From: Escherichia coli
GTDB taxonomy: Bacteria; Pseudomonadota; Gammaproteobacteria; Enterobacterales; Enterobacteriaceae
DNA: 64,000 bases
Strand: one strand, 5' to 3'
Assembly: GCF_003790525.1 (NCBI RefSeq)
Contig: NZ_CP033635.1
The position numbers were made by a program. Below are positions 35,101-38,100 of the stretch, piece by piece. Every line of letters starts with the position of its first letter. Position 1 is the stretch's first letter.

Positions 35101-38100
35101 GAGAAGTTTTTTGACGCTTGTATTAACTTCATGTGGGAAAGAACGTTCAGATGTTTGAATGATATTAAAGAGCGATTGCATTACGAATTTAAGAGGAATA
35201 TTTTAGATTTAATTGCCACTCTTAGGCATCAAATTGATATCTATAGAAGACGTAGTTCCATGAGAGAAATCCAGGAGAAAATTGACCTCTTGGCCGAAAG
35301 CATTAATAAAGAAATTGCAACAGTCTGCGATTGGTTAAATGTACTTGAGTATAACGAGGAGAAAATATATAAAATATCATCCGTGATGCAGGCATGTAGG
35401 AAAACTTTTTTTAATATACACCATTGTTCTGATGATGCTATCGTTTTTGATTCAATGTATCATGATGATGAACCAAAATTATCTTATAAAGAAGCCAAGC
35501 CTCTAATCACATCAATAATAACAGCGTTAAACAATGCTATGGCCTATGGTAATAAAAAAATCTTTATCAGTATTAAGCCTGAAGAAAAGTCATGGAAAAT
35601 AACCATCAGAAATTTGATAATTGAGACAAAGAACAGAACTACCAACCAAATTTTACAAGAGATTGATGATAAAATAAAACGAGGGGATAATAGTCTAAAT
35701 ATAAAAGAAGGCGGAGCTGGAATATATAAAATATATGATTTATTATGTTCATTACCGCAAAGATTTAATGTGAATCATTGCATCCAAAATAACGAATTCA
35801 TTTTAAATATTGAGATAAAGAAATGAAAATTCTTCTTGTTGAGGATATTGAATATAAGCGTGATAAGGTGATCGGTTTACTAGAGTCTATTTCTGCCGAT
35901 GTATCAGTCGATGTAGCTAAATCTTATGTTTCGGCAGTAAATTCCGCAACCAGTAAAACTTATGATCTTATAATATTAGATATGAGCCTTCCCACTTACG
36001 ATAAGGGGCCTAATGAAAATGGAGGTCGCTTCAGAGTGTACGGAGGGAAAGATATTATTCGCAAGTTAATGAGAGGAAAAGAGCATCCAGTAGTTGTGGT
36101 TTTAACACAACATACAACTTTTGGTGAAATTGGTGAGCAAAAAAATACTGACACTCTATCACAAGAGTTGAATGCTTTAATGGGATCAAAATTTATAGGT
36201 ATTGTAAAATATGACTCAACTAAACCTCAATGGAAAGATGAAATAAAAAAAGTCGTACAGGATTTGTTATGATTAAAATATTAATAGTTGATGACAATAA
36301 ATCTAGAATTGAAAAGCTAAAATCTAGCTTAACTGAACTCATCACAAAAAACATGATAAGGATTGATGAGAAATATACAAGTGACGCCGCAAAAATCGCG
36401 CTCAAGTTAAATCAATATGATTATTTAATTCTTGATGTCTTTTTACCTAAAAAAGATAACTATAGCCCAGATGAAAGAAATGGATTAGGTCTTTTAAAAC
36501 AAATAAATTCAGATTCTAAATTTTACTCTCCAAAAAAAATAGTTGGCATAACTGCATATCTGAATGATATATCCAGATATGAATCCGAATTCAGAGAATA
36601 TGCTTCAATTATATTCGAGGCTCGACGTAATGATACTGGATGGCTTGAATCACTCAAAAAAATCATTGAAAAGGATGTTGAATCTCAAGTAAGTTATAAT
36701 CTCAATGAAAAAGATAGTGTTTTAATAACAGTACACGGTATAAGAACCTACGCACCTTGGCAAAATACCATAGAAGAAAAAATAACCAATATATCAAATA
36801 AATTTAACTATATAAAATTCAATTATGGTTTTCTAAATATTCTTTGTTTTTTATTCCCTCCGACTAGACATCTATTTGCAAGAAAAATAATCCAAGACAT
36901 ACGAATTACAGTGGAATCAAATAAGAATAAAAGAATTTATATTATTTGTCATAGTTTTGGTACCTACCTTGTATATTGTGCCTTAAGTAAACTGACACAT
37001 ACGGATGCAAAAATTGAATGTTTAATTTTTTCTGGTAGCGTATTAAAACGTACTACCTCATTGAAAACATTAAAGCAACATTGTAATGCAATAATAAATG
37101 ACTGTGCTGTAAGTGATTATATTTTATTACTATGTAAAATGTTAGTCATTGGCTTGGGCGATGCAGGCAGAAAAGGGTTTATTGAGCCAAATGATGGTGT
37201 TTTCATTAACCGCTATTTTAAAGGAGGACATTCAACTTACTTCGAAGATAAAGATTTCATAGAAGTGAACTGGCTTCCTTTAATTTTTGACAATAAAAAT
37301 ATCGCGTCACGAGATGAAAGAAAAAATCATATTTTTTCCGATGTCACCAATGCTTTGCAAAATATAATTGAATATTTAAAAATACCAATATGGTTATTTT
37401 TTTCTTTTTTATTGATAGCACTGGTATTATAATATCACTGCACATTAAAAATCATATTGGAGCTTCCCTCATAAAGCTCCAATATAAAACACCATCATTT
37501 CAATAGTACCTGCAGCTAATTAAAACTAGTCAACCGAAAAAATTAATCACTTTAAACTTTAGTATGCACTTATACTTTCTTAATAATAGAAAAACACTTA
37601 CAAATAAATTAATCATGTCAATCTCCGTAACTACAACCTCGGAAAGTATGTAAACAGGAATCATTACTGAAAAAAACACGATTTCAGCAGAATTCTAGAA
37701 ATATCCTGTGCTGCTGCCGATACCAACTTTCGTATATACTACCCTTCACGTTCCTTCTCGTTTTTATAAAACTATTCATTTATAACTATCAATAGGCATC
37801 ATAACCAATGTAAGTGTAAGTACTGGTGAACGAGTGTCAATGGAGTTAAAAGTATCACTTCATCCTGCTAAATATAAGTTATCCTACGTTTTAATATACT
37901 AGAACTCAAAATTAGAATGGTTTGTTAATATTAATAGATTTACCATTGATATCTTTTGACACCTTAAAAAAATCTATACCTTTTATCCACTGACATAACT
38001 GTTGTAGTGTTTCCATTGCCTGTTCTAACTCATTTTTTTCAATTCTAACGCCCCCATGATGGCTACAGGAATTTAATAATTCCTGAGCTAGAGTGATGTC

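Follow-up and report, generated by a model that had tools for sequence, protein, structure and literature searches.

What does a response regulator do when its output domain looks like a lipase that is anchored in a membrane? This question is raised by the gene at positions 36269..37432 (+) of a 64,000-nucleotide stretch (hereafter, the window) of the Escherichia coli SMS-3-5 chromosome. A first-pass annotation, made from the DNA alone, had read the gene product as a receiver domain fused to a lipase-like alpha/beta hydrolase with a C-terminal transmembrane anchor, and had regarded such a phosphorylation-gated membrane esterase or phospholipase as an unusual response-regulator output. In the present analysis, it was found that the gene is the third one of a three-gene operon, dtcA-dtcB-dtcC. 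It is highly probable that this is a Detocs anti-phage operon of the hydrolase-effector subtype, residing on a tRNA-Thr integrase island, and a phosphorylation-gated membrane effector is proposed for it. The domain reading of the first-pass annotation held up. By viewing the gene alone, it missed the operon with the sensor and the stand-alone receiver on a mobile island. The word "unusual" is also out of date, as the architecture was published in 2023 as the 'Detocs-hydrolase' variant and has a curated UniProt entry, P0DX73.

Identification of a probable Detocs operon

In Detocs, a defensive two-component system, DtcA is the sensor kinase, DtcB serves as a 'buffer' receiver, and DtcC is the response regulator that acts as the effector (Rousset et al. 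2023, bioRxiv 10.1101/2023.01.24.525353). About 80% of Detocs operons have a purine nucleoside phosphorylase (PNP) type ATP-nucleosidase as the effector, and the effector is swapped in a minority of them (Rousset et al. 2023). Among the swapped types, the 'Hydrolase + TM' Detocs of Table S5 occurs in E. coli, Klebsiella quasipneumoniae, Vibrio, Yersinia, Pseudomonas, and others (Rousset et al. 2023). The kinase histidine and the DtcC aspartate are required in the PNP-type system of Vibrio alginolyticus, and mutation of the DtcB aspartate is toxic; the hydrolase-type system of Enterobacter cloacae protects E. coli against phages (Rousset et al. 2023).

Does the operon in the window belong here? 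The dtcA gene (32551..35826, +) encodes a cytoplasmic sensor of 1091 amino acid residues (aa), presumably a histidine kinase. The dtcB gene (35823..36272, +) encodes a stand-alone receiver of 149 aa with E7/D8 and D53, the latter lying within LIILDMSLP. The dtcC gene encodes 387 aa comprising a response-regulator receiver, an alpha/beta hydrolase, and a C-terminal membrane helix. All three genes are co-oriented, and at both the dtcA-dtcB and the dtcB-dtcC junctions the start and stop codons overlap in a 4-bp ATGA. The order of a ~1100-aa, a ~150-aa, and a ~390-aa gene is kept in Vibrio cholerae, Janthinobacterium, Enterobacteriaceae, Pantoea, and Klebsiella.

Each protein matched one PADLOC model of the same set: DtcA matched PDC-M60A (E = 4.5e-55, residues 491-1061), DtcB matched PDC-M60B (E = 2e-35), and DtcC matched PDC-M60C (E = 9.9e-23), the last over residues 2-149, the receiver part, only. 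PDC-M60B and PDC-M60C are also the models matched by the published DtcB and DtcC of V. alginolyticus, and for DtcC the match is full-length. Thus, the PDC-M60 models stand for Detocs. The published E. cloacae DtcC-hydrolase matches PDC-M60C over the receiver only, exactly as the DtcC of the window does. DtcB is 32% identical to the DtcB of E. cloacae JD6301 (E = 1e-19). In a Foldseek search against AFDB50, the matches included B1LHU2, which is the SMS-3-5 protein itself, and the Swiss-Prot entry P0DX73, 'Detocs response regulatory AB hydrolase DtcC', at a query template-modelling score (TMq) of 0.88. DtcC shares its operon, on a mobile island, with both a sensor and another receiver that stands alone, and from this context the operon probably functions in anti-phage defence.

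The island is ~12 kb long, and on each side it has a 23-nt direct repeat that corresponds to the 3' end of tRNA-Thr (28270-28292 and 40321-40343; the two copies are 91% identical). The guanine-cytosine (GC) content of dtcABC is 0.29-0.35, as compared with 0.475 for the whole window and 0.54 for proA. At 99% identity or higher, the operon was found in 16 of 5426 complete E. coli genomes.

A second hydrolase-type DtcC (P0095, 'MULTISPECIES: response regulator [Enterobacteriaceae]'), which is 34% identical, is accompanied by dtcA and dtcB and adjoins yjcB (L006/L007:3248-8173). An E. coli Detocs island has been reported at yjcB-ssb (PMC11728103). Should the P0095 locus be this yjcB-ssb island, there would be two separate lineages of hydrolase-type Detocs in E. 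coli, each at a hotspot of its own.

The 2023 publication already covers the architecture, the operon, and the anti-phage role, and the operon is picked up by standard defence-annotation models. The RefSeq labels 'hypothetical protein', 'response regulator', and 'alpha/beta hydrolase' hide the Detocs identity. With the present identification, the island of E. coli SMS-3-5 can be labelled correctly, which is the practical gain.

Receiver, hydrolase, and membrane helix of DtcC

The dtcC open reading frame (ORF) runs from an ATG to a stop codon, and its translation agrees with that of the first-pass annotation. At the local GC content of 29-35%, a run of 387 codons would escape a stop by chance with a probability of ~2e-15. 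The protein shares 98% identity with a K. quasipneumoniae protein and 63% with a Pantoea protein, and more than 100 clusters at 30-40% identity were found in Vibrio, Pseudomonas, Yersinia, Janthinobacterium, and others. Conservation was scored over a family alignment of 54 sequences (A1); "invariant" and "at least 90%" refer to its columns.

All the motifs quoted in the first-pass annotation, namely IVDDN, LILDV, VHGIRT, ICHSFGT, and GGHSTYF, are present in the ORF, and their key residues show little or no variation across the family. In the receiver, D56 and T95 are invariant, and at least 90% of the sequences retain the acidic pair D8 and D9. In the C-terminal half, the invariant residues are H156, G157, I158, and T160 of VHGIRT, H228, S229, and G231 of ICHSFGT, and G319, G320, and H321 of GGHSTYF. 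A further motif, N277-x-C279-xxx-D283, has N277, C279, and D283 invariant, as are W164, Q165, A299, G300, G303, N314, R315, and W335 elsewhere in the hydrolase domain, and R301 is conserved in at least 90%. The predicted catalytic acid, which had been left unnamed, is D283.

The receiver domain (residues 1-~123) and a long connecting helix (residues 124-146) occupy 36269..36706 (+), as delimited by Pfam, PADLOC, Foldseek, and the alignment, and the codon of the phospho-acceptor D56 lies at 36434-36436 (+). Pfam Response_reg gave a weak match to residues 4-98 (E = 6e-5). The solved receivers PmrA, ArlR, and YycF superpose on the N-terminal domain in Foldseek with a target template-modelling score (TMt) of ~0.8. 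According to the structure model, the N-terminal domain is a CheY-like receiver, in accord with the original reading.

Is the C-terminal half really a hydrolase? The full-length AlphaFold2 (AF2) model of DtcC has a predicted local distance difference test (pLDDT) score of 90.9. In this model, the C-terminal half is not a non-hydrolase fold; it is an alpha/beta-hydrolase fold, as the lipase-like reading demanded. From the model and the 54-sequence alignment, a minimal cap-less domain was delimited to residues ~147-345 (36707..37303, +). The first strand of the domain (150-156) ends with H156-G157, the oxyanion motif. The nucleophile elbow C227-H-S229-F-G231 lies between strand 222-228 and helix 231-240, D283 comes after strand 275-280, and H321 comes after strand 312-317. 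In the predicted secondary structure, the Ser, the Asp, and the His are thus placed where an alpha/beta hydrolase has its triad, and, on the model, the oxyanion residue, the nucleophile elbow, the acid, and the base are at canonical positions. The codons of the three invariant residues are at 36953-36955 (S229, in C-H-S-F-G), 37115-37117 (D283, in N-D-C-x-x-S-D), and 37229-37231 (H321, in G-G-H-S), all on the plus strand.

To which hydrolases is the domain related? Around the nucleophile elbow, it has a weak, sub-threshold Pfam similarity to lipase and esterase families. These families mostly act on lipids: DUF900, Lipase_3, DUF676, LIDHydrolase, PGAP1, LCAT, Palm_thioest, and Tle3. In a PDB profile search with the domain, lipases appeared at E = 0.006-1, again around the nucleophile elbow. 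The top match of that search was PUF4 (E = 0.003), which was judged to be spurious. The subfamily placement of the domain is beyond the reach of sequence alone. In the searchable literature, I found no published esterase or phospholipase activity for a DtcC-type hydrolase, and a search for mechanistic follow-ups to Detocs or to its hydrolase yielded the original preprint and passing mentions only.

The terminal hydrophobic helix was also recovered. Nowhere in the protein is the hydrophobicity higher than in the putative tail anchor, residues 371-387 (IPIWLFFSFLLIALVL; 37379..37429, +), with a Kyte-Doolittle value of 2.65 over 15 residues. In the AF2 model, a single helix spans residues 357-386, and an amphipathic helix from residue 357 precedes the hydrophobic tail. 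Most of the 54 family members have a hydrophobic C-terminal tail, whose sequence is poorly conserved. DtcC is the only one of the three proteins with a hydrophobic segment; none was found in DtcA or DtcB, and a hydrophobicity scan of DtcA revealed no membrane or periplasmic input domain.

The sensor DtcA and the points against the Detocs reading

DtcA was compared with five homologues (A2), which were picked from the genes neighbouring DtcC relatives; word-indexed searches for DtcA homologues gave at least two matches with the full-length protein and at least four with a C-terminal profile. The sequence GLDKxLSxxIRHG is invariant among the five and contains H744, the candidate phospho-histidine. 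N995 and E1053-G-G-x-G1057 are also invariant and resemble the N and G2 boxes of ATP-binding domains. Some DtcA homologues, including a 100%-identical fragment, carry the precomputed Pfam assignment PF27260, 'Y4jQ'. Apparently, this newer Pfam family covers Detocs sensors.

Several observations weigh against the identification and the proposed phosphorelay. DtcA has no Pfam-A match, including HisKA and HATPase_c, and no NCBIfam match, and its similarity to solved kinases is sub-threshold only (E = 0.38-1.9 for the ATP-binding domain of VanS and 2.1 for QseC), which bears on its nature as a kinase. In the receiver of DtcC, the Pfam Response_reg alignment breaks off after 80 of the 111 model positions. 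The K109 of CheY has no conserved counterpart, since no Lys column is invariant or at least 90% conserved anywhere in the 54-sequence alignment; past strand 114-117, at the beta5 end where CheY has K109, the consensus is 'EA'. This comparison is one of sequence, and a functional substitute for the Lys is possible. The hydrophobic stretch of DtcC is short for a membrane span (16-19 residues). Finally, the phage-tested relative, the E. cloacae system, is only 32% identical to the DtcC of the window. Even with these points, a hydrolase-type Detocs system is by a wide way the most probable identity of dtcABC.

Proposed mechanism and alternatives

How would such a system work? The cytoplasmic DtcA would detect a phage cue and autophosphorylate, probably on H744, and the phosphate would move to D56 of DtcC. 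Phosphorylation of the receiver would then release or activate the adjacent Ser229-Asp283-His321 hydrolase. Tethered by the C-terminal helix to the inner membrane on its cytoplasmic side, the hydrolase domain would most likely attack a (phospho)lipid of the membrane or some other acyl ester located there. The resulting membrane damage may stop the infected cell prior to phage release (abortive infection). DtcB is proposed to be a phosphate sink or 'buffer'; through D53, it would compete for phosphate, soak up leaky signalling, and prevent self-killing. Of this scheme, I only infer which histidine is phosphorylated, that the substrate is a lipid, and how the enzyme is switched on; the same holds for abortive infection in the hydrolase subtype. 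The invariant residues S229, D283, H321, and D56 of DtcC, H744 of DtcA, and D53 of DtcB are direct targets for mutagenesis.

A membrane lipid is the best guess for the substrate of the DtcC hydrolase. Lipid-degrading effectors have precedents in defence systems and toxins, such as the patatin-like phospholipase CapV of the cyclic-oligonucleotide-based anti-phage signalling system (CBASS) and the Tle lipases of the type VI secretion system (T6SS). It is possible, if on the unlikely side, that dtcABC is a Detocs system whose hydrolase cuts some other membrane ester, thioester, or amide and not bulk lipid. Lipoprotein or acyl-protein thioesters, acyl-carrier or undecaprenyl-linked cell-wall precursors, and a phage or host protein can be named as such substrates. 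However, there is positive evidence for no particular one of them, and the membrane tethering together with the effector precedents favours lipid.

Might the helix rather than the enzyme kill the cell? Phosphorylation could drive oligomerisation of the C-terminal helix and permeabilise the membrane, with the alpha/beta domain serving as a scaffold or regulator. Membrane-helix effectors do exist, as some Detocs effectors are annotated only '1TM' (Rousset et al. 2023), and the position of the hydrophobic helix is conserved in every architecture of the family described below. However, the triad, the HG oxyanion motif, and ~20 other hydrolase residues are invariant in the 54 sequences and across architectures, which is unexpected for a scaffold, while the sequence of the helix itself is poorly conserved. 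Killing by the helix is therefore improbable, and killing by the hydrolase is preferred.

The generic RefSeq annotation and the well-known response regulators with enzymatic output would also suit a housekeeping two-component pathway with no immune role, for example in membrane-lipid remodelling, but this is very improbable in view of the low-GC integrase island with its att repeats, the presence of the operon in so few complete E. coli genomes (16 of 5426), the different mobile or defence-type islands that hold it in other taxa (in Pantoea, one that also has a relaxase, an integrase, and an Mrr-family nuclease), the sensor without a membrane or periplasmic input domain, and the phage resistance conferred by a homologous operon (Rousset et al. 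2023).

A wider family of hydrolase-plus-helix proteins

Is the hydrolase domain limited to Detocs? A profile of the domain matched 4655 representative clusters at E <= 1e-3, of which 1230 were at E <= 1e-30. The best 150 of the 4655 clusters comprised 56 DtcC-like forms, 83 forms with an N-terminal module and a long C-terminal extension, and 11 short forms. In the 83 long forms (among P0149-P0262; median 897 aa), the domain is at the extreme N-terminus and is followed by the hydrophobic helix and then by the extension. The helix begins 16-19 residues past the hydrolase domain in all three architectures. The juxtamembrane motif is similar in the sampled DtcC-like and long forms, with a Lys ~4 residues before a Tyr, often after a Pro. 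The long-form proteins are ~430-1300 aa in length, and several sampled extensions match WD40/beta-propeller, leucine-rich repeat (LRR), or OmpA/Pal-like domains. PADLOC models gave no match for ten sampled long-form members.

Two sampled long-form loci were inspected (L008:8001-10694 and L010:2146-5034). One adjoins integrases and HD-domain genes, and the other adjoins a Schlafen/AlbA_2 gene.

The hydrolase-plus-helix unit looks like a reusable module. I tentatively suggest, as a rather doubtful idea, that the unit of DtcC is not a generic lipase but a widespread effector module that works near the membrane and has a substrate specificity of its own. The long forms, as single-pass proteins whose C-terminal parts are presumably extracytoplasmic, could then survey the envelope or detect phages, each as a transmembrane sensor made of one protein, and could set off the effector that is under phosphorylation control in Detocs. 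If the activity of the module were solved once, it would inform thousands of proteins.

Other genes of the island and its surroundings

The island was most likely inserted by way of the tRNA-Thr (CGT) gene at 40327..40402 (-), identified by ARAGORN, which is the integration site beside proA. Next to it, an ORF at 38979..40202 (-) encodes a tyrosine integrase (RefSeq 'tyrosine-type recombinase/integrase'). At the other end, the island has a CbtA-family toxin (28471-28839), a YeeU-family antitoxin (28860-29177), an antirestriction protein (29918-30376), and an IS3 element (30909-32086). A DUF987 gene, a gene for a RadC-like JAB protein, and a DUF905 pseudogene also lie within the island (28270-40343).

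Does the operon have a fourth gene? Between dtcC and the integrase gene, an ORF of 321 aa, orf321 (37912-38877, -; GC content 0.33), is convergent to dtcC. No Pfam, NCBIfam, or PADLOC match was found for it. The Klebsiella island (L013) has a 282-284-aa gene at the same position, while the Pantoea locus is empty at that position and orientation. Since the Pantoea version of the operon does without it, orf321 was left out of the system.

A 15-bp inverted repeat at 37452..37487, 20 nt past the dtcC stop codon, is a possible terminator for the convergent dtcC and orf321, as a weak candidate. It was scored as a terminator-like site on the minus strand, and two such sites were found in the region versus 3.0 expected. 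Both the promoter and the terminator scans of the region were at chance level.

The backbone on both sides (~19380-26173 of the window and flanks) is ordinary E. coli. According to the RefSeq annotation, the ecpRABCDE common-pilus operon, ykgJ, and yagU lie on one side, and proBA, phoE, crl, frsA, gpt, pepD, and prfH-rtcB lie on the other side.

Comparison with known systems

The nearest characterised system is the Detocs-hydrolase of E. cloacae JD6301, whose DtcC is P0DX73. The three-gene order is the same as that of the window operon. The two DtcC proteins (386 aa in E. cloacae and 387 aa in the window) both consist of a receiver, an alpha/beta hydrolase, and a C-terminal membrane helix, and they align from end to end with 32% identity (E = 9e-56). 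They share the catalytic and phospho-acceptor motifs HGI, HSFGT, N-x-C-xxx-D, AGR-GF, and NR-F-GGHS, and their modelled hydrolase domains superpose with a TMq of 0.88. At 32% identity, however, the window operon is a separate lineage within the subtype, and it resides on a different island (tRNA-Thr/proA).

The canonical Detocs of V. alginolyticus UCD-32C has the same logic of a sensor, a buffer receiver, and an effector response regulator. The receivers of the two DtcC proteins are homologous (29% identity over 98 residues, E = 2e-5). In contrast, the V. alginolyticus effector is a soluble PNP-fold enzyme that cleaves ATP and dATP, while the effector of the window is an unrelated, membrane-anchored alpha/beta hydrolase. 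Since the effector folds differ, the mechanism of cell arrest is expected to differ as well.

How does the hydrolase domain compare with solved lid-less alpha/beta hydrolases? YdeN of Bacillus subtilis (1uxo), the Pseudomonas fluorescens carboxylesterase (1auo), Lip_vut1 (6nkc), human acyl-protein thioesterase 2 (5syn), and the T6SS effector Tle3 (8boz) were compared. Their identity to DtcC is 18% or lower, and a sequence-level family assignment was never significant. Unlike DtcC, none of them is receiver-fused or tail-anchored, and the invariant motifs NDC, AGRxGF, and NRxF are specific to the DtcC family.

An N-terminal phospho-receiver that controls a C-terminal enzyme is also seen in the methylesterase CheB, the diguanylate cyclases PleD/WspR, RpfG, and PorX, of which PleD and PorX were among the Foldseek matches of DtcC through the receiver domain. 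These proteins are soluble signalling enzymes with other output folds, whereas DtcC appears to be tethered to the membrane and is encoded in an immune operon together with a decoy receiver.

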